A stretch of DNA of 64,000 nt from Candidatus Adlerbacteria bacterium (GTDB lineage: Bacteria; Patescibacteriota; Minisyncoccia; Phycocordibacterales; SBAW01). The notes beneath the pieces were generated by a model. That model did not search any database and had not been told where the DNA came from. It was given only the letters and a program-made list of their open reading frames with translations. Shown piece after piece: positions 21,587-63,998 of this stretch. The stretch lies in NCBI GenBank assembly GCA_963749085.1, contig CAVVLG010000002.1, forward strand, positions 155,093-219,092, written 5' to 3'. The translations under genes and the position numbers were made by a program. How positions within the stretch are numbered: position 1 is the first letter of the stretch; the number at the start of each line of letters is the position of its first letter.

Positions 21587-21596
21587 GGGAAGGGGG

Positions 21597-30506: not shown

Positions 30507-31033
30507 TAGTGCAGGCTGGATCGCCCATTTTGCGCGCGAAGGTCTTGTCTGTCGCTAAAAAAGACATCGGATCTCGAAAACTCAACGGCATTGTGAGGCA
30601 CATGAAAGAGACCCTCAAAAAAGAGAAGTTTGGCGTGGCAATAGCGGCCCCGCAGATAGGAGAGTCTCTGCGCCTGTTTGTCGTCTCAGGAAGGGCGTTC
30701 CAAACCGAAGATAAAGAGGAAGAAAAGTTGCCAGCGGACATGGTGTTTATCAACCCAGAGCTCACGCGCCTGTCGCGTACTAAAAAAGAAGTGACCGAAG
30801 GATGCCTATCGGTGCGGCATAAATACGGCAGCGTACTGCGCCACGAAAAAGCGGGCGTCAAAGCGCTCGACGAAAAAGGCCGCCCCTTTATCTACCACGG
30901 CTCGGGCCTCCTGGCGCAAATCTTTCAACACGAAGTTGATCATTTAAATGGCGTGTTGTACACCGATAGGGCGATAAAGCTCGTCGAGGACAAAGAGTGG
31001 GCACAGCTGAAAACAAAACGGGCGAAAAAATAA
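30479..31033 (+). CDS. def: peptide deformylase
   Basis: GVAIAAPQIG, EGCLSV and HEVDHLNG metal-binding motifs. Confidence 0.9.
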   Translation: MYSIGMKDPIVQAGSPILRAKVLSVAKKDIGSRKLNGIVRHMKETLKKEKFGVAIAAPQIGESLRLFVVSGRAFQTEDKEEEKLPADMVFINPELTRLSRTKKEVTEGCLSVRHKYGSVLRHEKAGVKALDEKGRPFIYHGSGLLAQIFQHEVDHLNGVLYTDRAIKLVEDKEWAQLKTKRAKK

Positions 31034-49584: not shown

Positions 49585-50418
49585 ATGCTTTCATATCCGC
49601 AGGCGATTATCCTTGGGCTCCTCCAAGGCATAACTGAGCTCTTCCCCATCTCCTCCCTCGGCCACAGCGTCCTAATCCCCGCACTTCTCCATTGGCAGGT
49701 AAACCAATCGAGCAACCAGTTCGTAGCGTTCGTGGTTCTCACGCATTTAGCAACGGTACTCGTGCTAGTTCTCTTTTTCTGGAGGGATTGGGTGCGTATT
49801 ATATTTGGCCTCATCCACTCCCTCGTGGTACGTCAGCTTTCAAACCCCTATGCGCGGCTGGGATGGCTTCTGGTAGTGAGCACCGTACCGGCCGGACTTC
49901 TCGGACTTCTCTTCCAGCAAAAAGTGCAGGATCTTTTCAGTGACGCCTCATTAGTGGCCTGTGTGCTTGTGGTGAACGGCGTCGTGCTGTATGCGGCGGA
50001 CCACCTGCGCAAGCGCGCCGAGGAGGGTTCAATGAATACGCTTGCGGGGCTTACCTTCTGGCAGGCTGTCTATATCGGGCTTTTGGAGTGTTTTGCCCTC
50101 ATTCCCGGATTCTCTCGTACCGGCTTTACCATGACCGGCGGCCTATTGGGCGGCCTCTCCAGAGAAGACGCAGCTCGCTATTCCTTTCTTCTGGCGACCC
50201 CGGTTATCTTTGCCGCATCAGTGCTGAAAGTTCCGGATCTTTTTAAAAACGGGCATGCGGGTCTCTTTCCTGCCCTTGTGGGTGCTGTGTGCGCTGCAGT
50301 GGCTTCGTTTGTATCCGTGCGCTTCTTGGTGAAGTACTTCCGCACAAAAACGCTGAAGCCGTTTGCCCTCTACTGCATCCTCGCGGGTCTACTCTCCCTT
50401 ATACTTCTCATGCTCTAA
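49585..50418 (+). CDS. uppP: undecaprenyl-diphosphatase
   Basis: [17 protein letters not shown] and [12 protein letters not shown] BacA/UppP motifs. 8 TM helices. Confidence 0.85.
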
Positions 50419-50467: not shown

Positions 50468-50725
50468 TTAGGTAAGGTGGTCTGAGACCAACTTGGTCAT
50501 TTCAAACATGGAGACTTCCTTTTTGCCACCAAAGACGACTTTGAGTTTCTCGTCAGCCAAGATATTCCTCTTATTCTGCGGGTTCTGGAGGTTGTGCTTC
50601 TTAATATAGACCCAGATCTGCTTGACGACCTCGGAACGAGGCATAGGACCCTTGCCGACAACCGCTTCAAGATCGGAAGACAGATGCATCGGTTTTAATA
50701 GAGCTGGGTTGGCTTTTCTGACCAT
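50468..50725 (-). CDS. SWIB/MDM2 domain protein
   Basis: 85 aa with LSSDLEAVVG...RSEVVKQIWVYIKKHNLQNPQNKRNILADEKLKVVFG, the SWIB domain signature. Confidence 0.75.
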   Translation of the reverse strand: MVRKANPALLKPMHLSSDLEAVVGKGPMPRSEVVKQIWVYIKKHNLQNPQNKRNILADEKLKVVFGGKKEVSMFEMTKLVSDHLT

Positions 50726-50820: not shown

Positions 50821-51579
50821 CTATTTTGGCCGTACGTCCTTATACACATGACTAAAGGGCTTCCCGAAAAAGGTTATCCAGAAATAATTGATCGTATAGC
50901 GCATGCTGGTGACGACTATACCCTCCCCCTTAAGGCGCCTCCCGGAGGCGTAGACCGGGAGTCTAAAGGTCCATTTGACCTTCCCCACTTTGTTGAGACG
51001 CTTTGCCACGTCCGTGTCCTCACCGTAGAAGGTTATGGTGGTGTCATAGCCGCCTGCTTTGTCCATGGCGGCGCGTCGTATGACAAAATTGCCACCCTGG
51101 AGCATGGAGCCTATGTGCAGTACGAATCGGTTGAAAAGATACAGGAGGAAGGCAAAGAAATAAAAGATTTTGACCAGGGTGCGGAACAAAGCTGAGAGAT
51201 CGTAGTAAATGAAGGGCCCAGAAAGCGCCACCAGTTGGCTGTCTTTTTGAAACTCATTCATGACCGTGTGAAGCCAGCCCGAAGGCAAAATGACGTCAGC
51301 GTCTATATTGGCAACCAGATCGCCCGTCGCCGCTTTATGTCCTGCTTGGCGCGCCATGACAAGGCCTTTCTTCGGTTCATCGACAATTTTCACTCCAGGG
51401 AAACTAAGTGCTGTCTCTTTAGTCTTATCGGTTGAGGCGTTGTTGACAACGATGGTCTCGGCCTCATACCTGCCTCCCTTGAGCTCCGTTTGGATAGATT
51501 CCAGGCACGCCCCTATTCGATCCTCCTCGTTATAGGCAGGGACGACGAAACTGATTTTCATGTTATGTAAGCCTACCAC
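50821..51579 (-). CDS. glycosyltransferase family 2
   Basis: ISFVVPAYNEEDRI and a DAD (DxD) motif. C-terminal membrane-associated segment. Confidence 0.8.
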   Translation of the reverse strand: MVGLHNMKISFVVPAYNEEDRIGACLESIQTELKGGRYEAETIVVNNASTDKTKETALSFPGVKIVDEPKKGLVMARQAGHKAATGDLVANIDADVILPSGWLHTVMNEFQKDSQLVALSGPFIYYDLSALFRTLVKIFYFFAFLLYLFNRFVLHIGSMLQGGNFVIRRAAMDKAGGYDTTITFYGEDTDVAKRLNKVGKVKWTFRLPVYASGRRLKGEGIVVTSMRYTINYFWITFFGKPFSHVYKDVRPK

Positions 51580-51633
51580 CCCTTATAAAAAACAAAAACC
51601 GGACGGGGATTCTATCCCCGTCCGGCCAAAAAC

Positions 51634-52248
51634 TCAGCGAAGTGACAACCAGGAGAGGGCCGTGAGGCCAAAGCCTGCACCTGCCCACACCACAAGCGTT
51701 ATGACGTCTGCCGGCGGTTGTGGCGAAAACCATGCTGGCGACCACAACTTCACCACCAAGTGAGTGCCGAGGACCACATGAATCCAGAGCAAAACGCTTG
51801 AGCCTACGACGATCCATACCGGTAGATCGGTCGTGCAGAGGAAAAAGAGGCCGATGATGGTTAGCGCTGCCAGCATAAACCAGAAATGCACGTATGCCGG
51901 CGCAGTGAGTCTTCCGTGATGCATGTGCGAATTGGGGATGTGGTCTTGCAAGTACTGATAGTGCATCACTGCACTCAGTACAAGCGCGGCCAACCCCACA
52001 TACAGGATTTCTCGTCCGCTCCATTGATAGCCGTAGTTCGCCACGACGATTCCGCACCACAGAGCGATGACTATATCGCCCCACATGATGCCGAAGTGCC
52101 ACACCATCGGTAATCCCTTACCATGATGGAGCATCATGTCTTGGGGAGTGAAGAAATGGTCCTCATAGGCAAGCGCTGCCTGAAGGAAGATCAGACTTAT
52201 TCCGACGAGAGAGATCAGAATGCCTGAGATAATGCTTTCGAGCGCCAT
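51634..52248 (-). CDS. hypothetical polytopic membrane protein
   Basis: 6-7 predicted TM helices, His-rich loops. Alternative start at 52275. Confidence 0.4.
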   Translation of the reverse strand: MALESIISGILISLVGISLIFLQAALAYEDHFFTPQDMMLHHGKGLPMVWHFGIMWGDIVIALWCGIVVANYGYQWSGREILYVGLAALVLSAVMHYQYLQDHIPNSHMHHGRLTAPAYVHFWFMLAALTIIGLFFLCTTDLPVWIVVGSSVLLWIHVVLGTHLVVKLWSPAWFSPQPPADVITLVVWAGAGFGLTALSWLSLR

Positions 52249-52388
52249 ACGCGCCTCCTCTGTTTGTTGACCCAAGCTCGATGAAGTTACAAGGACCTAA
52301 TTCATTTTGGAGAGTATCATATTTAATTAAAAACGTCAAGATTAAAAACCCTTTGTACGCAAGGGGAAAAAGGCACATACTTACTTTA

Positions 52389-53582
52389 ATGCGTATCGCC
52401 TATTTTGCCGACAATTTTTATCCGGAGATAAGCGGTATTTCGGATTCGATCATCACGACTGGCGAGGAACTACGCAAGCGCGGGCACGAGGTGGTGTACG
52501 TGGCTCCGCGATACGGCAGAAAGGAATATGAGCCCGCGCAGCGCTTCGACGCCAATAAAAAACCGCTTCATGACCCGCGCGGAGATTTGCCGGTACGGCG
52601 CGTCCCGTCTCTCCCCTTCCCGAACTCGCCGACGAGCCAGTCGCGCATCGCCGTGCCTTTGGGATTTATGCTCCCTTTCATGCGGCGCTTTAAGCCCGAT
52701 ATTATTCACAGCCAAGCGCCCCACGGTGTGGGACTTGAGGCGCTCTACACCTCGAGAGCCTTGGGAGTTCCGCTCATCGGCACGGAGCACACCCCTATTG
52801 AGGAGTTTTTCCATTACAGTCCCGCCGTTTCAAAAACGTTTGGAGCGGCCTGGCTACGCTGGGAAGTCTGGTACTACAACCGCTGCGACTTTGTCACCAC
52901 CCCCTATCAAGGCCTTATTGAGGAGATGCGCGGGCGAGGTCTTCGCTCAAGGGCCCGCGTCCAGGCAAATCCTGTTCCGTTTGAATCCATGCTCTCAAGC
53001 GCTCCGCAAAAAGAGGCGGCCAAAAAGGGCAATGGGTTTACGGGCTCAGTCCTTCTGTGCTCTGGACGTTTAGCTCCGGAGAAAAAAGTCGATGATATCA
53101 TTAAGGCGCTTCCTTCCGTGCTCAAGCAATTCCCCAATGCAACCCTGGTCGTTACCGGACACGGGTCAGCTGAAGCGGCGCTCAAGGCGCTTACCAAAAA
53201 ACTTGGTATAGAAAATAATGTCCGTTTTGTAGGGTTTGTCTCAAACACGCAGTTGGAAACGCTCTACCGAGCAGCAGATATCTATCTCATCATGTCGACC
53301 GCCGAGACTCAATCGCTCTCGCTCATGGAAGCGTTTGCCAGCGGCATTCCCGCCATATCTGCCCGCGCACGCGGTCTTATCGACTACACACCTCCTGAGT
53401 GCGGTTTTTTAATTGAACCCGGCGATGACAAGGGATTGTCTGAAAAAATACTCCTTCTTTTAAGCGACAACGCACTCAGGGAGCGTATGGGTAGCGCGGG
53501 AACGCAGTTTGTCAAAAAATTTACGCCACAGACAATAGCCGAGGACTGGGAGCGGATATACCAAGAAAACCTTATAAATTAA
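52389..53582 (+). CDS. glycosyltransferase family 4 (GT-B, group 1)
   Basis: N-terminal ISGISDSI...GHEV and the C-terminal E-x7-E region (LMEAFASGIPAI). Start set at MRIAYFADNFYPE. Confidence 0.8.
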   Translation: MRIAYFADNFYPEISGISDSIITTGEELRKRGHEVVYVAPRYGRKEYEPAQRFDANKKPLHDPRGDLPVRRVPSLPFPNSPTSQSRIAVPLGFMLPFMRRFKPDIIHSQAPHGVGLEALYTSRALGVPLIGTEHTPIEEFFHYSPAVSKTFGAAWLRWEVWYYNRCDFVTTPYQGLIEEMRGRGLRSRARVQANPVPFESMLSSAPQKEAAKKGNGFTGSVLLCSGRLAPEKKVDDIIKALPSVLKQFPNATLVVTGHGSAEAALKALTKKLGIENNVRFVGFVSNTQLETLYRAADIYLIMSTAETQSLSLMEAFASGIPAISARARGLIDYTPPECGFLIEPGDDKGLSEKILLLLSDNALRERMGSAGTQFVKKFTPQTIAEDWERIYQENLIN

Positions 53583-54190
53583 AGGCTTTTCTCCTCCGCC
53601 TCTTCTTGTTTGAGCAGGCGGCGGCGCATGAAATGCGTGAAGATGTAGTATCCAGTGACGAAGATGCTCACCGCCAGAAGCACCAGCGCCAGGTTATTGA
53701 GGATATTGGAGACCGTTCCGAATGCGCTGCCGAAATAGTAGCCCAAAAACAGGAGCGTGCCGTATTGGAGTATAGTCACGATGATGGCACAGGTAAAAAA
53801 CTTTTTTGGCGACATCTTCACAAGTCCCGCCACCACCAAAAATGTCCCTGCAAGCCCGTAGGAGAGCTTGCTGAAGAACATGGTCCTGCCCGGATATTTC
53901 TCCCACAGCTTATGAACGCCCATGAGGTGCTCGTGCGTGACCCCTATTTTTTTGAGAAACCACTTCGCCACGCGCGTCTGTCCCCCGAAGCGCCCGAGCA
54001 CGTACATGAATGCGTCGACAATGATGTCGCGGAGGAAAAATATGACTGCCAAGAGGATCAGGTTGAAATACCCGAGCGACGCTAAGGTACCGGCGACGAA
54101 GGCCACAATGGGCCCCTCAAGAAAGCACAGCGGAATGAGTATCCAGTAGCGGTAGGTGAGGATAAGGTGGGTGAGGGTCTGTGCGGACAT
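53579..54190 (-). CDS. DedA/SNARE-associated (TVP38/TMEM64) family membrane protein
   Basis: CFLEGPIVAFVAGTLASLGY and GRFGG motifs of DedA proteins. Confidence 0.75.
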   Translation of the reverse strand: MSAQTLTHLILTYRYWILIPLCFLEGPIVAFVAGTLASLGYFNLILLAVIFFLRDIIVDAFMYVLGRFGGQTRVAKWFLKKIGVTHEHLMGVHKLWEKYPGRTMFFSKLSYGLAGTFLVVAGLVKMSPKKFFTCAIIVTILQYGTLLFLGYYFGSAFGTVSNILNNLALVLLAVSIFVTGYYIFTHFMRRRLLKQEEAEEKSL

Positions 54191-54237
54191 TCTGCCAGTA
54201 TATACGATCGAGTAGTATACTGAGGGAAAAGAAATCT

Positions 54238-54909
54238 ATGTATGCGAATTACTACAGTGAGGTTATCAAGCGCTACCGCGTGCACTGCTCCAAACGTTCG
54301 TTCTGGAAAGCGTCCTTTATTGCTTTCCTGTTATTTTTTGCGGCACTTAGTATCAACAGCTATGCGGAAAATTACACGACTTCGGTGGCAAGCAACTCCG
54401 TCACCGATATCGTGCTCTCCAATACCCCGGTATTCGACGTCGACGCGCTCTTCGTCTACGGCATCACGATATTTATTGTTTTTGTCGTCTTAGTGTTGCT
54501 CGCGCACCCGCAGGAAATTCCCTTCACACTCTGCAGCTTCGCGCTGTTCTACCTCACCCGCTCGGTGTTCGTCTCTTTGACTCACATTGCGCCCTTCCCC
54601 ACCGAGACGCCGATAAACTTCACCAGCAGCATAGGGATATTCCTTAGCCATATTTTCTTCGGCGGGGACAGCCTTTTCTTCTCCGCCCACACTGGAGCGC
54701 CTTTTTTGCTGGCGCTCATATTTTGGCGCCAAATCTGGCTTCGATATATCTTCCTCGCCTCCTCGGTCTTCTTTGGCGCGGTGGTACTCCTAGGACATAT
54801 CCACTATTCGATAGACGTCCTCTCCGCCTTCTACATTTCCTTCGGCATCTATCACATGAGCGTATGGCTTTTTAGGAAAGACTACCTGCAATTCCTCGCC
54901 GGGCCTTAA
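54238..54909 (+). CDS. hypothetical membrane protein, possibly PAP2-like
   Basis: 6 TM helices with SAHTGAP and GHIHYSIDV resembling PAP2 motifs 2 and 3. Weak call. Confidence 0.3.
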   Translation: MYANYYSEVIKRYRVHCSKRSFWKASFIAFLLFFAALSINSYAENYTTSVASNSVTDIVLSNTPVFDVDALFVYGITIFIVFVVLVLLAHPQEIPFTLCSFALFYLTRSVFVSLTHIAPFPTETPINFTSSIGIFLSHIFFGGDSLFFSAHTGAPFLLALIFWRQIWLRYIFLASSVFFGAVVLLGHIHYSIDVLSAFYISFGIYHMSVWLFRKDYLQFLAGP

Positions 54910-55098
54910 AAAAGAAACGCCTGGGGTCTCTCTCAGGTTCTAAAGGGCATACCAGATAACCAGCGCGTCGGTATGAAGTACCGGTCTTAAGCCGAGGGGG
55001 CCCCGAAGCACTGCAAGGAGCCCCCTCGGCGCGCCCGCGGACGAAACTTCTCCACTTTTTTTGCACCACCGGAGAGGATTCTAGCGTATAATGAGCGA

Positions 55099-55452
55099 AT
55101 GGATGGCCTTCCCAACTACGAGAGGGAGATTCGCCCGTGGGGAAACTTCGAGCGATTCACCCTTAATGAGAAAACAACGGTCAAGATAGTGACCGTCAAT
55201 CCCGGCGAGGCCATTAGTTTGCAAACGCACGAGCATCGGGACGAATTTTGGCGGGTTATCCGTGGGCTGGGCACTATCCGCATAGGAGATACCACGCACG
55301 AGGCCACCGCAGGCGCCTCGTATTTTAGTCCGCGACACTCTGAACACCGGGTCGAGGGGGGTTCGGAGGGTCTGCAGTTTCTTGAAATCGCGTTCGGCGA
55401 TTTTAATGAGCAAGATATTACAAGACTAGAAGACAAGTATGGGCGCGCGTAA
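55099..55452 (+). CDS. cupin protein of the type II phosphomannose isomerase (ManC C-terminal domain) type
   Basis: REIRPWGNFERF...VKIVTVNPGEAISLQTHEHRDEFWRVIRG...EHRVEGGSEGLQFLEIAFGDFNEQDITRLEDKYGR matches the MannoseP_isomer cupin. Confidence 0.7.
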   Translation: MDGLPNYEREIRPWGNFERFTLNEKTTVKIVTVNPGEAISLQTHEHRDEFWRVIRGLGTIRIGDTTHEATAGASYFSPRHSEHRVEGGSEGLQFLEIAFGDFNEQDITRLEDKYGRA

Positions 55453-55465
55453 TCATTAAGCAAGC

Positions 55466-56599
55466 ATGAGCATGTTGGCGGCGGCAGTTGCGTTCACGGA
55501 GATAACCGTTGTCGGTCTTGTTGGCCTTTTGCTTGTGTGTATTGCGCTCCTCTTCGCCCTTCTCGCGCTTTTCGGCTGGTGGAAAAAGAAGCCCCTGCTC
55601 CTCAAACGCGTACCCGAAAATCCCATTCTCTCGCCCGTACCGGAACATTGGTGGGAATCGCAGGCGGTGTTTAATCCCGCGGCCTTTGCCGAGGGCGATC
55701 GCGTTCACCTTTTATATCGAGCACTCGGCCAAGACGGCATCTCACGCATCGGCTATGCCTCAAGCCTCGATGGTTTGCATTTTGACGAGCGACTTCCCTA
55801 TCCGGTCTACACGCCCTCGCGCGATTTCGGTATTCCGCAGAAAAACCGCGTCTATGGGCCCCTTTCCTACGACACCTATACCTATGCTTCGGGCGGCGGT
55901 TGGGGAGGAGCGGAGGATCCGCGCGTTGTCAAAATAGATGGGGAGCTCTATATGACTTTTGTTGCCTTCGACGGCTGGGGATTTGTGCGCATGGCTCTCA
56001 CCGGATTGGGTCTTGAACATTTCCGCAATAAAAATTGGAAGTGGAGAGTGCCGGTGCTCCTCTCCCCCCCGGGCGAGGTCAATAAGAACTGGATTCTCTT
56101 TCCCGAAAAAATACACGGTAAGTTTGCCATCCTGCACAGTGTTTCGCCTGAGATTCGCATCGAATACGTCGATGATCTCAATGAATTTAACGGCAAAAAA
56201 TTTATTCAAGGCTCGACCCGTTCGGGGGGACGCCCTCATCATTGGGACAAACTGGTGCGCGGGGCCGGTGCCCCTCCCATAAAAACCCCTTACGGATGGC
56301 TTCTTTTGTATCACGGCTTTGATCCGGCACACTCGGAGGTAGCGTATAAAGTGGGTGCCATGCTTCTTGACTTGGAAGATCCGACTAAAATTTTATACCG
56401 CTCCAGCAACCCCATACTGGAGGCCAAGGAGTGGTACGAGAATGACTGGAAGCCGGGCGTTACCTATGCCTCGGGCGCAGTGGTGTTTCATGATGACTTG
56501 CTCGTGTTCTACGGCGGGGGCGATAAGCGCGTCAACGCGGCAAAAATGAATCTCAAGCTGTTTTTAACAGAGCTCAGAGAAGAGAGGAATAGGGTATGA
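55466..56599 (+). CDS. GH130-family (DUF377) beta-mannoside phosphorylase-like protein with N-terminal TM anchor
   Basis: TM helix, then WESQAVFNPAA...HLLYRALGQDG-SRIGYASSLDGLHF...GAEDPRV...YMTFVAFDG...LFPEK...GAPPIKTPYGWLLLYHG, the 5-bladed propeller motifs of GH130. Confidence 0.65.
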   Translation: MSMLAAAVAFTEITVVGLVGLLLVCIALLFALLALFGWWKKKPLLLKRVPENPILSPVPEHWWESQAVFNPAAFAEGDRVHLLYRALGQDGISRIGYASSLDGLHFDERLPYPVYTPSRDFGIPQKNRVYGPLSYDTYTYASGGGWGGAEDPRVVKIDGELYMTFVAFDGWGFVRMALTGLGLEHFRNKNWKWRVPVLLSPPGEVNKNWILFPEKIHGKFAILHSVSPEIRIEYVDDLNEFNGKKFIQGSTRSGGRPHHWDKLVRGAGAPPIKTPYGWLLLYHGFDPAHSEVAYKVGAMLLDLEDPTKILYRSSNPILEAKEWYENDWKPGVTYASGAVVFHDDLLVFYGGGDKRVNAAKMNLKLFLTELREERNRV

Positions 56600-57189
56600 G
56601 ACTGCTACAAAAGGTCAGACCATTGGAAGTGAAAAGATCTTTCGTGCTGTCTGATTTCATCCGGCATCATGAATACAATACCCAGGCCATGGCTCCTCTG
56701 AGTCCTTCCCAATACAAGCGCGAGGTGAAAAGGGCGAACCGCATCGTGCGGGAGATACCTGAAGTGCTGCTCGATCGCATCATCAAGGGAACGTTTGAAA
56801 AGCGTCTCACGGCCTATAAAAAGTTAACGTGGCACATCGGCATAGTGCGCACCGACGAGGTGCGGGTCTGGAGGGGCGCGGGAGGATTGCCAAAAAAATA
56901 CACTATCGGATCTGTAGCTCATACCGGCGATGTCGTACGGAAGGTGCTGGCGAAAAATCCTCGCACGCTCGGAGCGCGTGCACGAAGTGCTATACCAAGC
57001 ATCCTGCACACGTCCCTTTCCATCATCCAACGGGAGAAGTATCTGTTACCGATTGTCATTCCTGGAGGAACGCTCGACAAGAGTGGCTCTCCTGCGTTTC
57101 TTGATATCGATGACGGCTGTATGCGCTCCATTGCGCTTGCGGTCAGTGGAAAGAAAACAATAAAAGTCTACGTCGGCAGGAAAAAATAG
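56596..57189 (+). CDS. hypothetical protein (197 aa)
   Basis: Start overlaps the upstream stop (ATGA). No family recognised. Confidence 0.4.
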   Translation: MRLLQKVRPLEVKRSFVLSDFIRHHEYNTQAMAPLSPSQYKREVKRANRIVREIPEVLLDRIIKGTFEKRLTAYKKLTWHIGIVRTDEVRVWRGAGGLPKKYTIGSVAHTGDVVRKVLAKNPRTLGARARSAIPSILHTSLSIIQREKYLLPIVIPGGTLDKSGSPAFLDIDDGCMRSIALAVSGKKTIKVYVGRKK

Positions 57190-57208
57190 CCTATAATCAA
57201 ACACTATC

Positions 57209-59128
57209 ATGTACGTCATCCGCCGCTCCTCCCATAATCCCTTAATCTCGCCTATCGCCGACAAAGCGTGGGAGGCGCGTGGCACCTTCAATCCCTGTCC
57301 TATACGGTGCGGCAACATTACCCATGTGCTCTATCGCGCCTTGGGACGCCCCGACGCACTTATGACTCCTGCAGGCGTTTCAACGATAGGGAAAGCGCTC
57401 TCCATAGACGGCAAGCACTTCCAGAACCGCCGGCAGTTTATCGCTCCCGAGGAACCCTGGGAGAAATTCGGCTGCGAAGATCCGCGGGTTACGTTTTTTG
57501 AAGGACAGTACCTTATTTTCTACACGGCGCTTGGTGGCATGCCGTTCGGCCCTGGAAACATCAAAGTAGCGTGCGCGATTTCCAAAGATCTTGAGAGTAT
57601 TTCGGAGCGTCACCTTATCACTCCCTTTAACGCCAAGGCGATGGTACTCTTCCCTGAGCGCGTGAATGGAAAAATTACCCTGCTACTCACCGCGCACACC
57701 GATGAGCCTCCGGCCAAAATCGCTATAGCCCAGTGCGACAGGCTCGAGGAGCTCTGGGACCTTTCGTTTTGGGAGAAATGGCATTCAGAAATTGACGAGC
57801 ATACGCTCCACCCGCTGCGCAGCGACCGCGATTTTGCCGAAGTCGGAGCACCGCCGCTAAAAACCAAGGACGGGTGGCTCCTGTTTTACTCCTACATGCA
57901 AAATTACTACGATGGCGAGCAAAAGCGTGTCGTCGGTGTCGAGGCCCTACTTCTCAATCTCAAAGACCCCCACGAGATAGTCGGGCGCACCAAAGGCCCC
58001 ATTATGGTGCCGGAGGAAATTTACGAGAAATACGGCATCGTGCCTAACGTCGTCTTTCCTACAGGAGTGCTGCTGTATAAAGACCGGCTGGATCTCTACT
58101 ACGGCGCGGCGGACACGGTGTGTGCGCGGGCCTCGCTTAATCTTCCTGATCTGTTGGATGCCTTGGTACCTGAGCGGCGGGTTGAACTCGTAATGCGTGC
58201 CAAGGAAAATCCGATACTGAAGCCCCTCGACTCCCACCCGTGGGAGAAGAAAGCGGTGTTTAACCCGGCGGCGGTTGATATCGGGGGCTCGGTGCGCCTG
58301 CTCTACCGCGCTATGGGGGACGATAATACCTCAGTCTTAGGGTATGCCGCGAGTAAAAACGGGGTAAAGATAACCGAGCGCTCTTTGGAGCCGGTGTACA
58401 AACCGCGAGAGGATTTTGAAATGAAAAAAAACTCCGGCAACTCCGGCTGCGAGGACCCACGCATCACGCGCATGGGCAGTACCTTATATATGACCTATAC
58501 CGCCTTCGACGGAGTACACGCGACTCGAGTGGCCCTTACCTCCATTACTATAAAAGATTTCCTCGCGGGACGATGGGAAAAGTGGCAAAAGCCGCAGCTC
58601 ACCACCCCTGAAGGGATCAACGACAAGGATACCTGTCTCTTCCCCGAGAAGATAGGCGGACAATATATGTGGCTTCATCGTATCGATCCGCAGCTGTGTG
58701 CCGATTTTCTCGATACGCTCGATTTCTCCAAAAGCCACCTCACCCGCTGCATTGAAATCATGGGTCCGCGTCGGGGCATGTGGGATTCAGAGAAAATAGG
58801 CATCGCGGGCCCCCCGATAAAAACTCCCAAGGGCTGGCTCCTTATCTACCATGGGGTTTCCAAGACCTTGACCTACCGCCTCGGAGCCGTGCTACTTGAT
58901 CTCAAAAATCCCTCCATTATTATCTCGCGCACGGTGGATACTATTTTCGAGCCCATTGAGGAGTATGAGCGAGTCGGCGTGGTTCGGAATGCAGTGTTCT
59001 CCTGCGGCGCCATTGTGCGCGGCGATACCATATATATCTACTATGGAGGTGCTGATACGGTGACTGGGGTTGCTACATGCTCGATGAAGAAATTGCTGAA
59101 GATTTTACTGCCAAATAATTTAAAATAA
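57209..59128 (+). CDS. tandem double GH130-domain protein (639 aa)
   Basis: Two complete GH130-like modules, residues ~1-320 and ~330-639. Each has WE.(R/K)(G/A)(T/V)FNP, LYRA(L/M)G, GCEDPR(V/I)T, Y(T/M)(A/T)(L/F), LFPE and GWLL(F/I)Y motifs. Confidence 0.65.
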   Translation: MYVIRRSSHNPLISPIADKAWEARGTFNPCPIRCGNITHVLYRALGRPDALMTPAGVSTIGKALSIDGKHFQNRRQFIAPEEPWEKFGCEDPRVTFFEGQYLIFYTALGGMPFGPGNIKVACAISKDLESISERHLITPFNAKAMVLFPERVNGKITLLLTAHTDEPPAKIAIAQCDRLEELWDLSFWEKWHSEIDEHTLHPLRSDRDFAEVGAPPLKTKDGWLLFYSYMQNYYDGEQKRVVGVEALLLNLKDPHEIVGRTKGPIMVPEEIYEKYGIVPNVVFPTGVLLYKDRLDLYYGAADTVCARASLNLPDLLDALVPERRVELVMRAKENPILKPLDSHPWEKKAVFNPAAVDIGGSVRLLYRAMGDDNTSVLGYAASKNGVKITERSLEPVYKPREDFEMKKNSGNSGCEDPRITRMGSTLYMTYTAFDGVHATRVALTSITIKDFLAGRWEKWQKPQLTTPEGINDKDTCLFPEKIGGQYMWLHRIDPQLCADFLDTLDFSKSHLTRCIEIMGPRRGMWDSEKIGIAGPPIKTPKGWLLIYHGVSKTLTYRLGAVLLDLKNPSIIISRTVDTIFEPIEEYERVGVVRNAVFSCGAIVRGDTIYIYYGGADTVTGVATCSMKKLLKILLPNNLK

Positions 59129-59224
59129 GTAAATAGAGCTTGTTGTCTAGTACGATGTTGGAACCATTGTGACAAAAAAGGGAACGTCCGACTGAGGACG
59201 CCCCTGTGTCTCGCTCTGCATGGT

Positions 59225-59623
59225 TTACACGGTTTGAAGTGCTCGAGCTAGTTGAAGTCTCGGTCTCACGGCGCTCGGTTTGTACCTTGAAAGATACTCG
59301 CCTCGCTGGTGTGTGATGGATTCGGTCACCACCAAGAAGAAGACCCAGATGTAGAAAGTCACTAGACCCATGCATATGAGGATCAATGTCGGTGGCGCAT
59401 CGAAAGCTCGCGGTACCACGAGGGTCATCACGCGAGCCGATTCAAAGCAGTTCGTGATCAACCCACAAATCAGGCATGCCCCTAAATACCCTACCGACAG
59501 CCAGATGCCAATCGTTGCGTACCAGCCCACCACTTGGACTAACACGAACACTGGAACGAAAACTGGAATCGAAAAGATCGTTCCCACTATCAAAGCCATG
59601 AATACTCGCAGATATAACGGCAT
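59225..59623 (-). CDS. hypothetical membrane protein (132 aa)
   Basis: Four predicted TM helices. Confidence 0.35.
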   Translation of the reverse strand: MPLYLRVFMALIVGTIFSIPVFVPVFVLVQVVGWYATIGIWLSVGYLGACLICGLITNCFESARVMTLVVPRAFDAPPTLILICMGLVTFYIWVFFLVVTESITHQRGEYLSRYKPSAVRPRLQLARALQTV

Positions 59624-59723
59624 GAGATATCCTCCCTTTGTGTTCGTCTAACTACACGATACAAAAATTAGATTAAAAAGTCGAGCTGGGAGACTAGGAT
59701 TCGAACCTGTTATAGTTACCTCT

Positions 59724-60476
59724 ATGAATTTCAAACCGAAGCTAGTCGCGTTTGATCTCGATGGGACTATCGCAGAAAGTAAAAGTCTTGTCACTGTTGA
59801 TATGGGCGAGCGCTTGAGTCGGTTATTACAAAAGATACCGACCGCAGTGATGTCGGGGGCTGGTTTCCCCCAGTTTGAGCGGCAACTCCTCCCTGCCATC
59901 CCGGAAGGTGCCCGATTAGAGCATCTCTATATATTCCCGGATAATGCAGCGCAGTGCTTTACTTATCAAAGTGGCGCCTGGAGCATGCGCTATGACAATG
60001 CCTTTACGATGATGGAGCGCGACCGCATACTGCAGTGCTTAAAGGAGGCGCTCGAAGAGACAGGGCTCAGTGACGTGCCGGTGCGCGTGTGGGGGGAACA
60101 GATAGAAAATAGAGGCGCGCAGATAACATTCTCGGGCTTGGGCCAGCAGGCTCCGGTTGAGGAGAAAAAGATGTGGGATCCGACTGGTGAGAAGCGCGAG
60201 CGCCTTCGCGCTGCTCTTATGAAGCGCCTGCCTGAATTTTCAGAGGCAACGGGAGGCATGACCTCAGTCGATATCACACGAAAAGGCATCACCAAAGCCT
60301 ACGGAATACGAAAACTGGTCGAGATGACCGGAATTACGGTGTCTGAAATGCTCTATGTGGGCGATGCGCTTGAGGAAGGTGGCAATGATTACGTTGTGGT
60401 AGAAACAGGGGTACGTACGCAGCCCGTGTTCGGACCTGAAGAAACCGCCAAACTTATCGAGCAGTTACTTTCATGA
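59724..60476 (+). CDS. HAD-IIB hydrolase resembling eukaryotic-type phosphomannomutase
   Basis: FDLDGTI (DxDGT), a cap region, and GGMTSVDITRKGITKAY / GDALEEGGNDYVVV colinear with the PMM family (GGQISFDVFPDGWDKRY / GDKTMPGGNDHEIF). Confidence 0.55.
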   Translation: MNFKPKLVAFDLDGTIAESKSLVTVDMGERLSRLLQKIPTAVMSGAGFPQFERQLLPAIPEGARLEHLYIFPDNAAQCFTYQSGAWSMRYDNAFTMMERDRILQCLKEALEETGLSDVPVRVWGEQIENRGAQITFSGLGQQAPVEEKKMWDPTGEKRERLRAALMKRLPEFSEATGGMTSVDITRKGITKAYGIRKLVEMTGITVSEMLYVGDALEEGGNDYVVVETGVRTQPVFGPEETAKLIEQLLS

Positions 60477-60586: not shown

Positions 60587-61834
60587 ATGACTCGTATACA
60601 ATTAGGCATAATGTCAGCAATCTTTCTTAGCGCGATCTTGTTGGGCGGCGGCGCTACTGCCTACGGCCAGGAAACGAATGTGCCGGGAGACGCCCAATTC
60701 CAGCAAAGGATTGCCGACAGGCTTGCCGAGCTTTCCCAGATACAAAATAAAGGGGCATGTGCCGAAGCCGCCAACGGGTATGCATCTTGTGGTGTACGGG
60801 TGGTTGTCGATTCAAGCGGCCGTGCAAGAGCGAATGTAGCGCCCAGCGGGTACGGTCCGAGTCAATTTCTCGGAGCCTACGACCTCACCGGACTTTCTTC
60901 TTCAAATACGATCGCCATTGTCGATGCATACGATGATCCTAATATCGCGAGCGACCTTAGCACGTACGACTCCTATTTTAAACTTCCCGTGTTTCCGGCC
61001 TGCAGCAGCACCATCACGACTAGTTGTTTTGAGAAGCTAAATGAGAACGGCAAGACCTCTCCCCTGCCGCAATCAAATTCGTCGTGGGATCTTGAAATTT
61101 CGTTGGATGTCGAGGTCGCTCACGCCACGTGCCAAAATTGCCGCATTTTCTTGGTTGAGGCCAATTCCAGCAGTTTTGCTGATCTGCTCAAGGCGGTCGA
61201 TACGGCGGCGAGCAATTCGAGCGTGGTATCGGGCTCCTGGGGCGCAAGCGAATTCTCCGGCGAGACAGCCTACGACAGTACCTTTGACAAGACGGGCGTC
61301 GCGTTCACCTTCAGCGCGGGGGACGGCGGCTATGGGACTTCCTATCCAGCAGCCTCGCCGTACGTGACCGCAGTCGGAGGAACAACGCTGCTGCTCAACG
61401 GCAATTCCTATCTCAGCGAGAGCGTCTGGAGCGGAACGGGCAGCGGCTGCAGTGTCTATGAAACTAAGCCTGCCTGGCAGAATAGCCCCTGCGCCAAGCG
61501 GACCATGAATGACGTTTCGGCAGATGCCAATCCGGCTACTGGTGCTGCTATCTATGATAGTGTCCCATACGATGGGGTTTCGGGATGGTTTGAAGTAGGC
61601 GGCACAAGTCTATCAGCGCCCCTCATCGCCGCAGTGTATGCCCTACAGGGAGTGCCGAGTGGCGTTAAAGCTAATGCATTGCCGTACAGCCAAGGCACTG
61701 CTTCTAATTTAAATAAGGTAACCACCGGGAGCAACGGGTCCTGCGGCACCTATTTGTGTAATGCTGCAGATGCGCTCTTAGGCTATAGCGGTCCCATTGG
61801 AGTAGGTACTCCGAGGGGTACCTCGGCATTCTAG
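60587..61834 (+). CDS. secreted serine peptidase, S8/S53 (sedolisin-like) fold
   Basis: Signal peptide, TIAIVDAYDD (Asp), SAGDGGYG (sedolisin SGDxG-like oxyanion Asp) and GGTSLSAPLIAA (catalytic Ser). Confidence 0.6.
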   Translation: MTRIQLGIMSAIFLSAILLGGGATAYGQETNVPGDAQFQQRIADRLAELSQIQNKGACAEAANGYASCGVRVVVDSSGRARANVAPSGYGPSQFLGAYDLTGLSSSNTIAIVDAYDDPNIASDLSTYDSYFKLPVFPACSSTITTSCFEKLNENGKTSPLPQSNSSWDLEISLDVEVAHATCQNCRIFLVEANSSSFADLLKAVDTAASNSSVVSGSWGASEFSGETAYDSTFDKTGVAFTFSAGDGGYGTSYPAASPYVTAVGGTTLLLNGNSYLSESVWSGTGSGCSVYETKPAWQNSPCAKRTMNDVSADANPATGAAIYDSVPYDGVSGWFEVGGTSLSAPLIAAVYALQGVPSGVKANALPYSQGTASNLNKVTTGSNGSCGTYLCNAADALLGYSGPIGVGTPRGTSAF

Positions 61835-62214: not shown

Positions 62215-62565
62215 TTACCATTTGAAAAATCCAAACACATGCTGCAGGAGCGCGGAGATATGTCCGAAGAGTCGCGCGGTGAACGCAGGCGCTATGGGAG
62301 GGGTGGACGTCGCAGAAGAAGCGGCAACATAGATATGGATAGTCTGATGACCTCGTGGAGATGAGGTCGTGGTCGCATATTGATAGTGTGTACCATCAAC
62401 GTCGGTAGTGATAGAGATGCTCGAAGTCCCGCCCCCGCTCATCTGCGTGTCTATATCAGCCGAGGCACTTGAGGAGCCGCTTGCGCTCGCCTCAGTGTAG
62501 TCATAGGTGTAGTTGTACACCTGGGGCATGGGAGGTAGTGGTGGGATAAGCATACGTAGCGTCAA
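62215..62565 (-). CDS. hypothetical Ser/Thr-rich protein ending in QHVFGFF
   Basis: Start overlaps the upstream stop (ATGA). C-terminus LFGHISALLQHVFGFFKW parallels the C-terminus of the 44956 protein. Confidence 0.35.
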   Translation of the reverse strand: MTLRMLIPPLPPMPQVYNYTYDYTEASASGSSSASADIDTQMSGGGTSSISITTDVDGTHYQYATTTSSPRGHQTIHIYVAASSATSTPPIAPAFTARLFGHISALLQHVFGFFKW

Positions 62566-63998
62566 AAAGAAAAGACGGATTTCAGCCAGCTACTCAACGT
62601 TGGGGGGGTACTGTGAGTGCTTGCGGGCGTTTTCTTTTTGGGAGTGGCCGGTTTTAGTTTCGCCGGTTGAACAGATGCCTGCGGGACAGATACTTGCGAG
62701 GAGGTGGAAGAGGGAGTGACAGGGGCGGATGCCTGCGTACCGCAGGAGAGCTGGTTAATTCTAGTTTTGGTAAGCGTGTAGACATTCCCGGTCGCGGGTA
62801 TGCCGTTTGCTGCCTGAAATTTCTTCACTGCTGCTTCAGTGAGGTTACCGTAGTAGCCCGTTGGCTCAACCGAGAGATACCCCTCCTGATTGAGGATAGT
62901 CTGCAGCACAGTCACATCGGCGCTGCTATTATTTTTTGACCCGGGGAACAGATAACCGGCAAGCGGGGGCGTGCACGAGGTGGTTTCATTCGACGTGTTC
63001 TTGTTGATCGATACGTTCGCGAGATCCACGGTCGATGTCCCCAGTACTTCCCCTCCCCCCGAAAAACCGCTCGTTGAAGTGGCGATCATGCTTCCGTTGG
63101 GGAAATACTCCACATCACCCTCTCCATCAACAGGGGTTATAAAGTTGGTGTCGAAGTCCTGTCCGGTCACTTCAGCAACGTTATGGTAGATACCCGGCGT
63201 GGTGCTGGCCGTAAATTGCGCCGCGTACGTAAGGGTGACTTGATCTCCCGGCTCAAGAACATCCAGATTCCACGAGCGGGTATACACGATCCCTCCTGAG
63301 GGGTTATAGAGCGTGTCAGTCAGCGTTGAATTGTAGAGGGGTCCGGCATTTGGATCGTCGGTGACCACGACTTGATAGTTTACCGAGGCAGGCGTGGTGT
63401 CGGCTACCGTGAAGGTTTTCACCACGGTTATCTCTGCGGAAGACAAAATATTTGATCCGGAGCTGCCTCCTCCACCTCCGCTGCCGCCTCCCCCTGCGCC
63501 TCCTCCTCCTGCGCTCGAGGACGTAGTACTCGAAGGACTACCCGTAGTGCCACTGGAGGCGCCGCTGCTTGCGCCCCCACCGCCGCCTCCACCTCCGCTT
63601 GAGGTAGAGCTGCCTCCGGTTGTACTGCCGGTGGTAGGTGGAGCGCTACCACCCCCGCTTCCTGAGCTTGCGCTGCCTCCGGTAGGTGGATCGCCGCCGC
63701 CGCTTCCTGAGCTTCCGCTGCTGGGGTCAGTGCCTGAGGCCGAAGAAATGACGATCGAGACGGTTTGGGTATTATCGGTGTCGTTCTGGTTGTGCTCGTC
63801 TGAGGTGGCGGTTGCGGTCAATGGCACGGCCACCGAATCCCCGGTCGGCAATCCGGGCGCTTCCACGCGCATGATGGCGTCTATCTCAACCGAAGCACCC
63901 GGGGCGATGCTGCCGAGCGTCCACTGCGTGCCTCCTGAGATGCTGGAACTCGTGCCACCGTCGCTTCGCTCCAGAAAGAGCAGGTTCTGATTGTACAC
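62562..63998 (-). CDS. cell-surface protein with Gly/Ser-rich linker and C-terminal peptidoglycan-binding domain (N-terminus outside window)
   Basis: ORF open to the window edge. PG_binding_1-like VLQTILNQEGYL...GYYGNLTEAAVKKFQAANGI. Long G/S/T low-complexity tract. Confidence 0.5.
   Translation of the reverse strand: MYNQNLLFLERSDGGTSSSISGGTQWTLGSIAPGASVEIDAIMRVEAPGLPTGDSVAVPLTATATSDEHNQNDTDNTQTVSIVISSASGTDPSSGSSGSGGGDPPTGGSASSGSGGGSAPPTTGSTTGGSSTSSGGGGGGGGASSGASSGTTGSPSSTTSSSAGGGGAGGGGSGGGGGSSGSNILSSAEITVVKTFTVADTTPASVNYQVVVTDDPNAGPLYNSTLTDTLYNPSGGIVYTRSWNLDVLEPGDQVTLTYAAQFTASTTPGIYHNVAEVTGQDFDTNFITPVDGEGDVEYFPNGSMIATSTSGFSGGGEVLGTSTVDLANVSINKNTSNETTSCTPPLAGYLFPGSKNNSSADVTVLQTILNQEGYLSVEPTGYYGNLTEAAVKKFQAANGIPATGNVYTLTKTRINQLSCGTQASAPVTPSSTSSQVSVPQASVQPAKLKPATPKKKTPASTHSTPPTLSSWLKSVFSF

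Follow-up and report, generated by a model that had tools for sequence, protein, structure and literature searches.

We analysed a window of 64,000 nucleotides from a Paceibacteria genome, part of a contig of ~518 kb, which carries genes for a PMI-type cupin, a short GH130 protein, a tandem GH130 protein and a HAD protein, together with GT2, GT4, DedA/VTT, PAP2_C and UppP/BacA genes (Table 1). An HMM check found all open reading frames named in the first-pass annotation at their coordinates, with Pfam and NCBIfam in agreement on the families. Two further reading frames, ORF197 and ORF132, were missing from that annotation. The start of ORF197 overlaps the stop of the short GH130 gene by 4 bp, and in related loci this ParB/Srx-fold protein recurs as an insert or accessory gene of the GH130 operon. 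The best NCBIfam match of the GT4 protein is a glycolipid synthase, at 104 bits far below the cut-off of 400. A scan of the 64-kb window, covering the majority of its non-overlapping ORFs of at least 150 aa and a few shorter ones, detected no NTP_transferase/manC-type domain.

Table 1. Genes and domains of the cassette and its surroundings in the window.
Feature	Position	Strand	Family match and remarks
UppP/BacA	49585-50418		just outside the range 50821-60476
GT2	50821-51579	-	PF00535, E 3e-26
GT4	52281-53582	+	PF00534, E 9e-37
DedA/VTT	53579-54190	-	PF09335, E 3e-11
PAP2_C	54181-54909	+	28.1 bits vs cut-off 27; borderline
Cupin	55099-55452	+	117 aa; PF01050 MannoseP_isomer, 75 bits vs cut-off 23.6
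Short GH130	55466-56599	+	377 aa; PF04041, E 6e-39
ORF197	56596-57189	+	between both GH130 genes; ParB/Srx-fold protein
Tandem GH130	57209-59128	+	PF04041 twice, E 1e-92
Tandem GH130, N-terminal domain	57209-58171	+	
Tandem GH130, C-terminal domain	58172-59128	+	
ORF132	59225-59623	-	between tandem GH130 and HAD gene
HAD phosphohexomutase (proposed)	59724-60476	+	PF03332 PMM, 50.7 bits vs cut-off 22.4

The catalytic (proton-donor) Asp and the Glu/Lys pair, the latter being the published signature for beta-1,2-mannosides (PMC7660257, PMC4599007), are invariant in 223 of 223 domain sequences covering all three GH130 domain types. The closest solved enzymes among the PDB sequence matches, Teth514_1788/1789, Lin0857 and Uhgb_MS, are all beta-1,2-specific, and the nearest relatives of all three domains are Teth514_1788/1789 from Thermoanaerobacter sp. 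X-514, which are 1,2-beta-oligomannan and beta-1,2-mannobiose phosphorylases (E 5e-58 for the C-terminal domain, 1e-39 for the N-terminal domain and 3e-47 for short GH130). GH130 phosphorylases additionally require a phosphate-binding Arg/His pair (PMC7660257). In a residue census numbered after Uhgb_MS (positions R202, R242 and H261) the complete pair was present solely in the C-terminal domain of tandem GH130. The first-pass annotation had treated all three domains as candidate phosphorylases; the catalytic Asp is indeed found in each, whereas a phosphorylase role is supported for the tandem C-terminal domain and not for the acidic N-terminal domain or the Arg-less short GH130.

The C-terminal domain looks like a canonical beta-1,2-mannoside phosphorylase. 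Its best PDB match is 9FJ8, the oligomannan phosphorylase Teth514_1788, NF052550 scores 265 bits against this domain alone, and E415, D416, K473, H490, R491, K529, Y547 and H548 are invariant in 79 orthologs (K529 as K/R). In 79 orthologs of the N-terminal domain E90, D91 and K143 never vary; T/S stands in place of R202, H (F in the window) in place of R242 and S in place of H261, and D165, D208, E211 and E245 vary little or not at all. This charge pattern suggests a hydrolase-like domain in which the sugar subsites are kept and an acidic pocket replaces the phosphate pocket. A similar exchange is known from the Bacteroides GH130_3 beta-1,2-mannosidases BT3780 and BACOVA_03624, which have carboxylates in place of the phosphate-binding basic residues (PMC4599007, PMC7660257) and retain the sugar-subsite residues Asp, Glu and Lys. 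These enzymes are, however, secreted and distant (E ~1e-17; NF058598 84 bits vs a cut-off of 550), whereas the N-terminal domain is predicted to be intracellular, is fused to a putative phosphorylase and lies closer to GH130_6-type enzymes. Known GH130 hydrolases are secreted and the N-terminal domain is not, which counts against reading it as a hydrolase. Both halves of the tandem protein are under equal constraint, with a mean pairwise identity of 0.561 for the N-terminal and 0.560 for the C-terminal domain.

Short GH130, for which Teth514_1788 (E 4e-47) follows directly behind Teth514_1789 as best PDB match, keeps E150, D151 and K207. The position of R202 is occupied by Ser in the window and never by Arg in 65 orthologs, and that of R242 has become Val, while R265, K295, K329 and H283 (own numbering) are conserved; the phosphate pocket is thus apparently rearranged into a rebuilt basic pocket. 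Uhgb_MS, a GH130_4 enzyme from the human gut with the same beta-1,2 specificity that acts as phosphorylase and as weak GDP-Man transferase, differs in retaining K184, R202, R242 and a 48-residue lid. The absence of Arg in short GH130 parallels the situation in family GT108, where the equivalent Arg (catalytic Asp +65) is His in strict mannosyltransferases and where R153H abolishes phosphorylase activity (PMC10913872). At its N-terminus short GH130 has one hydrophobic TM helix (~residues 13-38, nt 55502-55579). Such a helix is present in 19 of the 65 orthologs, and the other 46 carry a soluble polybasic tail instead. All 19 TM-bearing orthologs have K/R residues only after the helix and none before it, and the predicted orientation places the catalytic domain on the cytoplasmic side. 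The membrane anchor described earlier thus exists, but it would hold a cytoplasmic domain, and most orthologs do without it.

The cupin aligns with the C-terminal PMI part of TIGR01479 (GMP_PMI, positions 357-467), and its motif SLQTHEHRDEFW is conserved in 42 orthologs; a sequence search yielded no solved relative. Stand-alone PMI-type cupins are poorly characterised. We propose that it is a stand-alone type II PMI-like protein interconverting Fru6P and Man6P. The HAD protein matches the Lactococcus lactis alpha-phosphoglucomutase PgmH (4BND) over residues 6-248 (E 1e-41), followed by eukaryotic PMM2 and PMM1 (E 1e-13 to 1e-7), and its motifs FDLDGT and GD..EEGGNDY are conserved. This full-length similarity, along with the HAD-IIB mutase architecture and the DxDGT and GGND motifs common to PgmH and PMM1/PMM2, points to a phosphohexomutase of the eukaryotic PMM/L. 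lactis alpha-PGM type rather than a generic phosphatase, in line with the first-pass annotation, and we propose Man6P <-> Man1P as its reaction. The nearest solved relative is a phosphoglucomutase, which counts against reading mannose specificity from the sequence. PgmH has been described as a mutase of glucose phosphates, whereas the HAD protein of Paceibacteria has genomic partners that appear mannose-specific.

We compared the gene order at 80 loci from different species, 51 of which had full flanks and were used for the cupin and HAD counts. The core consists of two adjoining genes, short GH130 followed by tandem GH130, with the former on the same strand and at most 200 bp upstream of the latter in 75 of the 80 loci. 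This grouping is far beyond chance, and the cassette is kept throughout Paceibacteria, one large ultra-small CPR group (Parcubacteria); the literature searched contained no description of it. Across more than 100 genomes, all with very small gene sets, the tandem protein keeps 73-80% identity, which fits a core function. The cupin gene lies directly upstream of short GH130 at 24 of 51 fully covered loci, and a HAD mutase gene stands beside the GH130 pair at 27 of 51 (23 PMM-like and 4 Cof-type HAD). This synteny across many lineages supports the earlier view that cupin, PMM-like HAD protein and GH130 form one functional unit; about half of the related loci, however, have the pair without an adjacent cupin or mutase, which counts against our main reading. 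In one lineage (L082/L083) the HAD protein has given way to a classical PGM_PMM alpha-D-phosphohexomutase, a non-orthologous displacement which argues that the Man6P <-> Man1P step is required. A gene for an HldC/RfaE-II-like sugar-1-phosphate nucleotidyltransferase accompanies the GH130 pair in 16 of the 51 fully covered operons and in L082/L083, usually as first gene of the operon (~30% of related operons).

GT2, GT4, DedA, PAP2 and UppP recur beside the cassette only in a handful of closest relatives and are missing from most of the 80 loci. We therefore rejected them as members of the module, leaving the partnership and envelope-polymer link suggested in the first-pass annotation without comparative support. 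No recurrent transporter, solute-binding protein, signal peptide or secreted glycanase was found near the cassette at the 80 loci, which argues for an internal substrate. Host-attached as they are, CPR cells might take up mannosides, so that a missing neighbouring transporter does not prove an endogenous substrate.

We give an even chance to the reading that the cassette serves a mannogen-like beta-1,2-mannoside metabolism of Paceibacteria, an intracellular cycle Fru6P <-> Man6P <-> Man1P <-> beta-1,2-mannoside. Its substrate would be an endogenous beta-1,2-mannoside pool, cytoplasmic or associated with the inner membrane. The cupin would connect Fru6P with Man6P and the HAD-type mutase Man6P with Man1P, and the tandem C-terminal domain would catalyse beta-1,2-(Man)n + Pi <-> beta-1,2-(Man)n-1 + alpha-Man1P. 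The N-terminal domain and short GH130 would bind the same beta-1,2-mannoside without being classical phosphorylases. Most likely, the N-terminal domain would hydrolyse or trim phosphorylase-resistant parts, for instance a primer or the final residues, and short GH130, tethered at the inner membrane face via its TM helix or polybasic tail, would be a chain-starting or chain-extending transferase with Man1P or NDP-mannose as donor. We know of no report of beta-1,2-mannan from CPR bacteria, nor of mannogen shown in bacteria.

A purely catabolic role is possible but rather unlikely. Beta-1,2-mannosides of the host or community, e.g. yeast-type or bacterial glycan caps, would be taken up, trimmed hydrolytically by the N-terminal domain and phosphorolysed by the C-terminal domain, with Man1P entering glycolysis via mutase and cupin and thus saving ATP; short GH130 would likewise act in degradation, with another chain-length or aglycone specificity. 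Characterised bacterial GH130 systems have all been interpreted as catabolic or salvage pathways (PMC4264767, PMC4599007), and Thermoanaerobacter likewise has two adjacent GH130 genes without signal peptides, both with the Glu/Lys beta-1,2 signature and differing in chain-length preference (PMC4264767). Moreover, the path Man1P -> Man6P -> Fru6P would be usable by a fermentative CPR cell, and GAPDH and similar glycolytic genes lie close to the cassette at many loci. However, the 12-gene cluster of Thermoanaerobacter includes an ABC transporter, a GH5 enzyme, a mannose-1-phosphate guanylyltransferase and a GT4 (PMC4264767), whereas the surroundings of the cassette at the 80 loci show no conserved transporter, binding protein or secreted enzyme. 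Teth514_1788 and Teth514_1789 are both complete phosphorylases, whereas two of three domains in Paceibacteria lack the phosphate site, which would be odd for an ATP-saving design. The tandem fusion, the membrane or polybasic tether and the partnership with PMI cupin and HAD mutase also set Paceibacteria apart; a salvage role leaves the tether unexplained and makes the operon-linked nucleotidyltransferase of ~30% of relatives superfluous.

Synthesis of an envelope glycoconjugate appears improbable. Here, the tethered GH130 would transfer beta-1,2-mannose onto a lipid-linked or membrane-glycolipid acceptor made by GT4/GT2, and DedA, UppP and PAP2 would flip and recycle the carrier lipid. Some or all of the DedA, PAP2_C, GT4, GT2 and UppP genes adjoin the cassette in the window and in L001, L003, L008, L009 and L014, the TM anchor occurs in exactly the clade with these neighbours, and the GT4 match to a glycolipid synthase, weak as it is, fits as well. 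Yet the GH130 pair is universal and these neighbours are not, the anchor gives way to a soluble tail in most orthologs, DedA and GT2 are encoded on the opposite strand, and all these neighbours are common housekeeping envelope genes of small genomes.

The strict version put forward in the first-pass annotation, a beta-mannoside synthesis from Man1P only by three phosphorylase domains, is the least probable reading: although genes for the PMI and PMM steps exist, the C-terminal domain resembles a complete reversible phosphorylase and the ORFs scanned hold no manC-type gene, two of three domains fail the Arg/His criterion, relatives carry the operon-linked HldC-like gene, the manC scan covers 64 kb of ~518 kb, and in vivo Pi/Man1P ratios normally push glycoside phosphorylases towards cleavage. 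Of the proposed nucleotide-sugar-free route the PMI and PMM steps and one phosphorylase domain have support, but the term 'nucleotide-sugar-independent' is insecure, given the HldC-like gene and the fact that characterised beta-1,2 GH130 phosphorylases, among them Uhgb_MS, take GDP-mannose besides Man1P (PMC12814180).

The mannogen-like cycle has a counterpart in Leishmania, where the GT108 proteins MTP1-7, strict mannosyltransferases and dual transferase/phosphorylases, are beta-propeller paralogs of one fold acting on beta-1,2-mannan; paralogs with the pocket Arg phosphorolyse, whereas Arg-less ones only transfer (PMC10913872). Mannogen serves Leishmania as an internal reserve with links to Man1P and Man6P. 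Its enzymes belong to GT108 and not to GH130, no GT108 structure was found among the PDB sequence matches of the three GH130 domains, and the Arg position of the Leishmania transferases holds His, as opposed to Ser/Asn/Ala/Gly in short GH130 of Paceibacteria. A mannogen-like cassette of this kind would connect central sugar metabolism with chains of beta-1,2-linked mannose.

ORF listing and profile searches confirmed, at their coordinates, the genes that the first-pass annotation had placed around a short, membrane-anchored and a tandem GH130 protein, and two genes absent from its list, ORF197 and ORF132, were also located in the cassette region (see table, where L-numbers designate related loci from other Paceibacteria-type genomes). 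By the names of its homologs the window belongs to class Paceibacteria (Parcubacteria) of the Patescibacteria, close to Adlerbacteria and Kaiserbacteria. The remainder of the window carries housekeeping genes, and a promoter and terminator scan gave counts not above those of shuffled sequence. The small hydrophobic ORF132, which has a terminator-like hairpin just past its stop codon, intervenes between the genes for the tandem GH130 and the HAD mutase, the gap in relatives being 3-35 bp. No homologs of ORF132 were found in 80 related loci, and it looks like a lineage-specific insertion.

Coordinates of features in the window and in related loci
Feature	Locus	Position	Strand	Basis or remark
UppP	window	49585-50418	+	profile search; just upstream of the range of the first-pass annotation
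GT2	window	50821-51579	-	profile search
ORF without family	window	51634-52275	-	ORF listing
GT4	window	52281-53582	+	profile search
DedA/VTT	window	53579-54190	-	profile search
PAP2_C protein	window	54181-54909	+	borderline profile score
PMI-type cupin, 117 aa	window	55099-55452	+	profile search
Short GH130, 377 aa, N-terminal hydrophobic helix	window	55466-56599	+	PF04041
ORF197	window	56596-57189	+	start overlaps short GH130 stop by 4 bp
Tandem GH130, 639 aa, two GH130 domains	window	57209-59128	+	PF04041
Terminator-like hairpin	window	59204-59181	-	just past ORF132 stop
ORF132, 132 aa, between tandem GH130 and HAD gene	window	59225-59623	-	ORF listing
PMM-family HAD-IIB protein, 250 aa	window	59724-60476	+	profile search
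MreB paralog	window	20531-21790	-	
MreB paralog	window	27398-28411	-	
MreC	window	19795-20556	-	
ORF, 648 aa	window	28915-30861	-	C-terminal EPSP_synthase/MurA-type match
SWIB/MDM2-domain protein, 85 aa	window	50468-50725	-	
Surface-protein region	window	46449-48233	+	
Secreted-looking protein, 415 aa	window	60587-61834	+	
Surface-protein region	window	62562-63998	-	
HldC-like gene	L014	6113-6598	-	
HldC-like gene	L022	1065-1568		
HldC-like gene	L039	8157-8660		
HldC-like gene	L082	4644-5180		
PGM_PMM, 547 aa	L082	5182-6825		mutase position
PGM_PMM, 547 aa	L083	2037-3680		mutase position
ORF197 relative	L081	8001-8609		
ORF197 relative	L082	8001-8597		
ORF197 relative	L084	6001-6603		
ORF197 relative	L085	6001-6609		
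ORF197 relative	L086	6001-6624		

Outside the cassette the window of this small-genome bacterium encodes MreC and two MreB paralogs, one of which, taken as an ORF, seems to be extended at its N-terminus by ~80 aa. It also has a 648-aa ORF that matches EPSP_synthase/MurA-type enolpyruvyl transferases over its C-terminal 400 aa and no family over its N-terminal ~230 aa. A secreted-looking 415-aa protein without Pfam match lies between large surface proteins that contain PG_binding_1, He_PIG/Ig and DUF11 domains. The SWIB/MDM2 protein, a small chromatin-type domain, is unusually well conserved in CPR bacteria (82-83% identity in the relatives L003 and L010) and is also encoded near ORF197 homologs (L081).

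When one genome per species was scanned, relatives of the tandem protein turned up at 226 loci. Analysis was carried out on the best 80, which represent Adler-, Taylor-, Nomura-, Zambryski-, Lloyd-, Moranii-, Harrison-, Jorgensen-, Campbell- and Wolfebacteria. In 75 of the 80 loci tblastn located the short GH130 gene on the same strand less than 200 bp upstream of the tandem gene, and 2 further loci have no upstream sequence. Partner genes were counted in the 51 loci with enough flanking DNA: the cupin gene lies beside the GH130 pair in 24, a HAD-IIB gene in 27 (23 of PMM type, 4 of Cof type) and a small cytidylyltransferase-fold gene in 16, with none of the three in 9. When all ORFs of the 80 loci were clustered no other widely recurring neighbour emerged. 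A Pfam scan of 20 cluster representatives returned housekeeping families only, among them HisRS, Fmt, Def, signal peptidase, Pth, HPF, MsrA, GAPDH, Pif1, EamA and a two-component system, and neither a sugar transporter nor manC was among these 20. GT2, GT4, DedA, PAP2_C and UppP, which the first-pass annotation had grouped with the cassette, are found again only in the nearest relatives (L001, L003, L008, L009, L014 and a few others). We therefore rejected them as module members and regard them as local neighbours.

GH130 proteins (PF04041) are five-bladed beta-propeller mannoside-active enzymes, among which beta-1,2-mannoside phosphorylases, hydrolases and dual transferase/phosphorylases are already known. 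Against a PF04041 cut-off of 26, the bit scores are 134 for the short GH130 and 311, in two stretches, for the tandem protein, and the closest solved proteins for all three domains are the beta-1,2-specific enzymes Teth514_1788, Teth514_1789, Lin0857 and Uhgb_MS. We split 79 tandem proteins into N- and C-domains and aligned them, together with 65 short paralogs, with Teth514_1788 and Uhgb_MS. In GH130 a proton-donor Asp is required (Uhgb_MP D104, Uhgb_MS D137, BT3780 D142), a Glu/Lys pair signifies the beta-1,2 linkage, and an Arg/His pair (Uhgb_MP R168/H231, Uhgb_MS R202/H261) binds phosphate in phosphorylases, with carboxylates instead in hydrolases (PMC7660257, PMC4599007); in BT3780 the Glu beside the catalytic Asp and the Lys at the +1 subsite are E141 and K199.

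The proton-donor Asp is invariant throughout the alignment, in both domains of the 79 tandem proteins and in the 65 short paralogs, as are the Glu and Lys of the beta-1,2 pair. At the phosphate site (Uhgb_MS numbering) position R202 is Arg in 79/79 C-domains, Thr or Ser in 78/79 N-domains and Ser, Asn, Ala or Gly in the short paralogs (Arg in 0/65); R242 is Lys or Arg in 79/79 C-domains, His in the N-domains (Phe in the window) and hydrophobic in the short paralogs; H261 is His in 79/79 C-domains, Ser in 77/79 N-domains and His in 61/65 short paralogs. Thus, of three GH130 phosphorylases that had been proposed, the C-domain keeps the complete Arg/His pair, but the N-domain and the short GH130 do not. 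In our reading the C-domain would be the one true phosphorylase. The cut-off of the beta-1,2-mannobiose phosphorylase equivalog NF052550 (450 bits) was reached by none, the whole tandem protein scoring 430, the C-domain 265, the N-domain 169 and the short GH130 207 bits.

The N-domain also lacks a fourth conserved basic residue, and D165, D208, E211 and E245, invariant or nearly so, lie in its phosphate-pocket loops; E211 was placed by HMMER on Teth R195 or two residues beyond, in an alignment to the phosphorylase. BT3780-type GH130_3 beta-1,2-mannosidases have carboxylate bases in place of the phosphate-binding residues, and a signal peptide; the N-domain has carboxylates in the corresponding loops but no signal peptide, and it scores 84 bits in NF058598 vs a cut-off of 550. 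Since its mean pairwise identity (0.561, with 68 highly conserved columns) matches that of the C-domain (0.560, with 66), the N-domain is not decaying; we read it as probably hydrolase-like with an acidic pocket. The short paralog conserves other basic residues (R265, K295, K329, R79 and K308 in its own numbering), and we regard it as a candidate transferase that may still bind an anionic group in a different geometry. All characterised beta-1,2 GH130 phosphorylases also have weak GDP-mannose transferase activity (PMC12814180). In the related GT108 family the corresponding Arg, equally far from the catalytic Asp, is replaced by His in strict transferases, and an Arg to His change abolishes phosphorylase activity (PMC10913872). 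PDB sequence searches with each of the three GH130 domains (E <= 1e-3 to 1e-5) returned no GT108 chain; the resemblance to the GT108 mannogen enzymes is functional only, the GH130s of the cassette lying outside GT108 by sequence.

The helix taken as a membrane anchor of the short GH130 is present in the window (~residues 13-38, with 0 basic residues before and five after it) but is found in only 19 of the 65 orthologs. The same charge asymmetry occurs in 19/19 and predicts an N-out/C-in orientation with a cytoplasmic catalytic domain. The segment was rejected as a secretion signal, there being no positive N-region and a K/R cluster after the helix in 19/19; no signal peptide-like N-terminus was detected among the cassette proteins. 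In 46/65 orthologs (e.g. L021, L042, L046, L059 and L075) a Lys/Arg-rich low-complexity tail of 40-90 residues, its exact length being uncertain as start codons were chosen mechanically, replaces the anchor. Such tails would suit binding of acidic lipids or another polyanion.

The PMM-like HAD protein proved to belong to a mutase family, scoring 50.7 bits in PF03332 (cut-off 22.4) and matching, along its entire length (residues 6-248, E 1e-41), the Lactococcus lactis alpha-phosphoglucomutase 4BND, with PMM2 and PMM1 as the next PDB matches. Because of this full-length match, and because the FDLDGT (DxDxT nucleophile) and GGND motifs are kept, its sequence identifies it as a mutase rather than a generic phosphatase. 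HAD-type PMMs, for example Plasmodium HAD5, commonly act on both glucose and mannose phosphates. In L082 and L083 a classical PGM_PMM alpha-D-phosphohexomutase occupies the mutase position, a non-orthologous displacement which speaks for a requirement of the cassette for a hexose-1-P/6-P mutase. The HAD protein is thus a putative phosphomannomutase, its mannose preference being suggested by the adjacent mannose-specific GH130s and by this replacement. For the cupin, too, the PMI-type assignment is supported by sequence, with 75 bits in PF01050, above the Pfam PMI threshold of 23.6, and a conserved metal-site motif SLQxHxHRxExW that is present in the window. Its alignment is with the C-terminal PMI portion of the bifunctional GMP/PMI enzymes, and the N-terminal guanylyltransferase half of TIGR01479 is missing from it (74.8 bits vs 372.95); a sequence search found no solved relative.

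The route had been proposed to be independent of nucleotide sugars, and no NTP_transferase or manC-type gene was detected in the ORFs scanned within the 64-kb window. In relatives, however, the cytidylyltransferase-fold gene (CTPtr) is usually the first of the operon, in the orders CTPtr-HAD-cupin-GH130-GH130x2, CTPtr-PGM_PMM-GH130-ORF197-GH130x2 and CTPtr-GH130-GH130x2. Its best family match is RfaE domain II/HldC (70-84 bits, under the 181.5 cut-off), with PDB matches to 3GLV and 5X9Q. HldC is a D-glycero-beta-D-manno-heptose-1-phosphate adenylyltransferase, and to our knowledge CPR bacteria have no LPS needing ADP-heptose. HldC-like proteins of ~160 aa are encoded at the operon head in ~30% of relatives. 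In the window tblastn found no such gene, and none of the best 120 of 5778 homolog matches lies on its source contig. The family is very large in CPR, with 65-78% identity among top matches across CPR phyla, and may have a housekeeping role. As the HldC-like gene is repeatedly found in operon position, independence of the pathway from nucleotide sugars is weakened.

ORF197 is a conserved protein of ~200 aa from a 97-member family without Pfam match. Its confident AF2 model (pLDDT 90.4) predicts a ParB/Srx fold with a DGxxR-type motif after a beta-strand, in agreement with the invariant DIDDGCMRS motif. Homologs lie inside or head GH130 operons in 4 of 6 contexts examined, and PilM-like genes adjoin in the other 2. 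The closest homologs adjoin PilM_2/FtsA-like genes.

In the mechanism we propose the cupin would interconvert Fru6P and Man6P, the HAD mutase Man6P and Man1P, and the C-domain phosphorylase Man1P and a beta-1,2-mannoside, while the N-domain would hydrolyse or transglycosylate bonds beyond the reach of the phosphorylase and the tethered short paralog would initiate or lengthen chains on the inner face of the membrane. Over a purely catabolic salvage role, the main rival, we favour an endogenous substrate because conservation of the cassette does not extend to any uptake or secreted component, because its proteins are predicted to be cytoplasmic, because it is highly conserved in minimal genomes, and because an Arg-less paralog coupled to a phosphorylase has its parallel in the mannogen enzymes of Leishmania. 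An envelope role may exist only in the clade whose short GH130 is TM-anchored. A tentative idea to which we assign a low probability is that Paceibacteria, and possibly other CPR bacteria, have a bacterial counterpart of Leishmania mannogen, a beta-1,2-mannan kept inside the cell at the inner face of the membrane as a reserve or osmolyte. The Arg-less tethered GH130 would be its synthase, using Man1P or an unusual NDP-mannose from the HldC-like enzyme as donor, the fused hydrolase-like/phosphorylase GH130 would turn it over, and the ParB/Srx-fold protein would be an accessory nucleotide-dependent factor.

Among open-access papers on CPR/Parcubacteria and GH130/DUF377 our sole find was a brief note that a Microgenomates genome has two GH130 genes lacking signal peptides. 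No description was found in the open-access literature of a tandem fusion of a hydrolase-like with a phosphorylase GH130, of its obligatory pairing with an Arg-less tethered paralog, of an association with a stand-alone PMI cupin and a mutase of HAD type, or of class-wide conservation of such a cassette in CPR bacteria.

The genomes of CPR/Patescibacteria are very small, and little is known of how these bacteria store carbon and energy. Cassette proteins are 73-80% identical across many lineages of one class, so that the cassette is likely central to the physiology of the class. The three natural, co-evolving versions of the GH130 active site (phosphate-binding, acidic and rearranged basic) offer a test of what sets phosphorylase, hydrolase and transferase chemistry apart, and beta-mannoside synthesis is of practical interest. 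Should the cassette both make and break down a pool of beta-1,2-mannosides inside the cell, bacteria would have their first described storage-type mannan system, one plausibly related to the bacterial donors of the mannogen enzymes of Leishmania.
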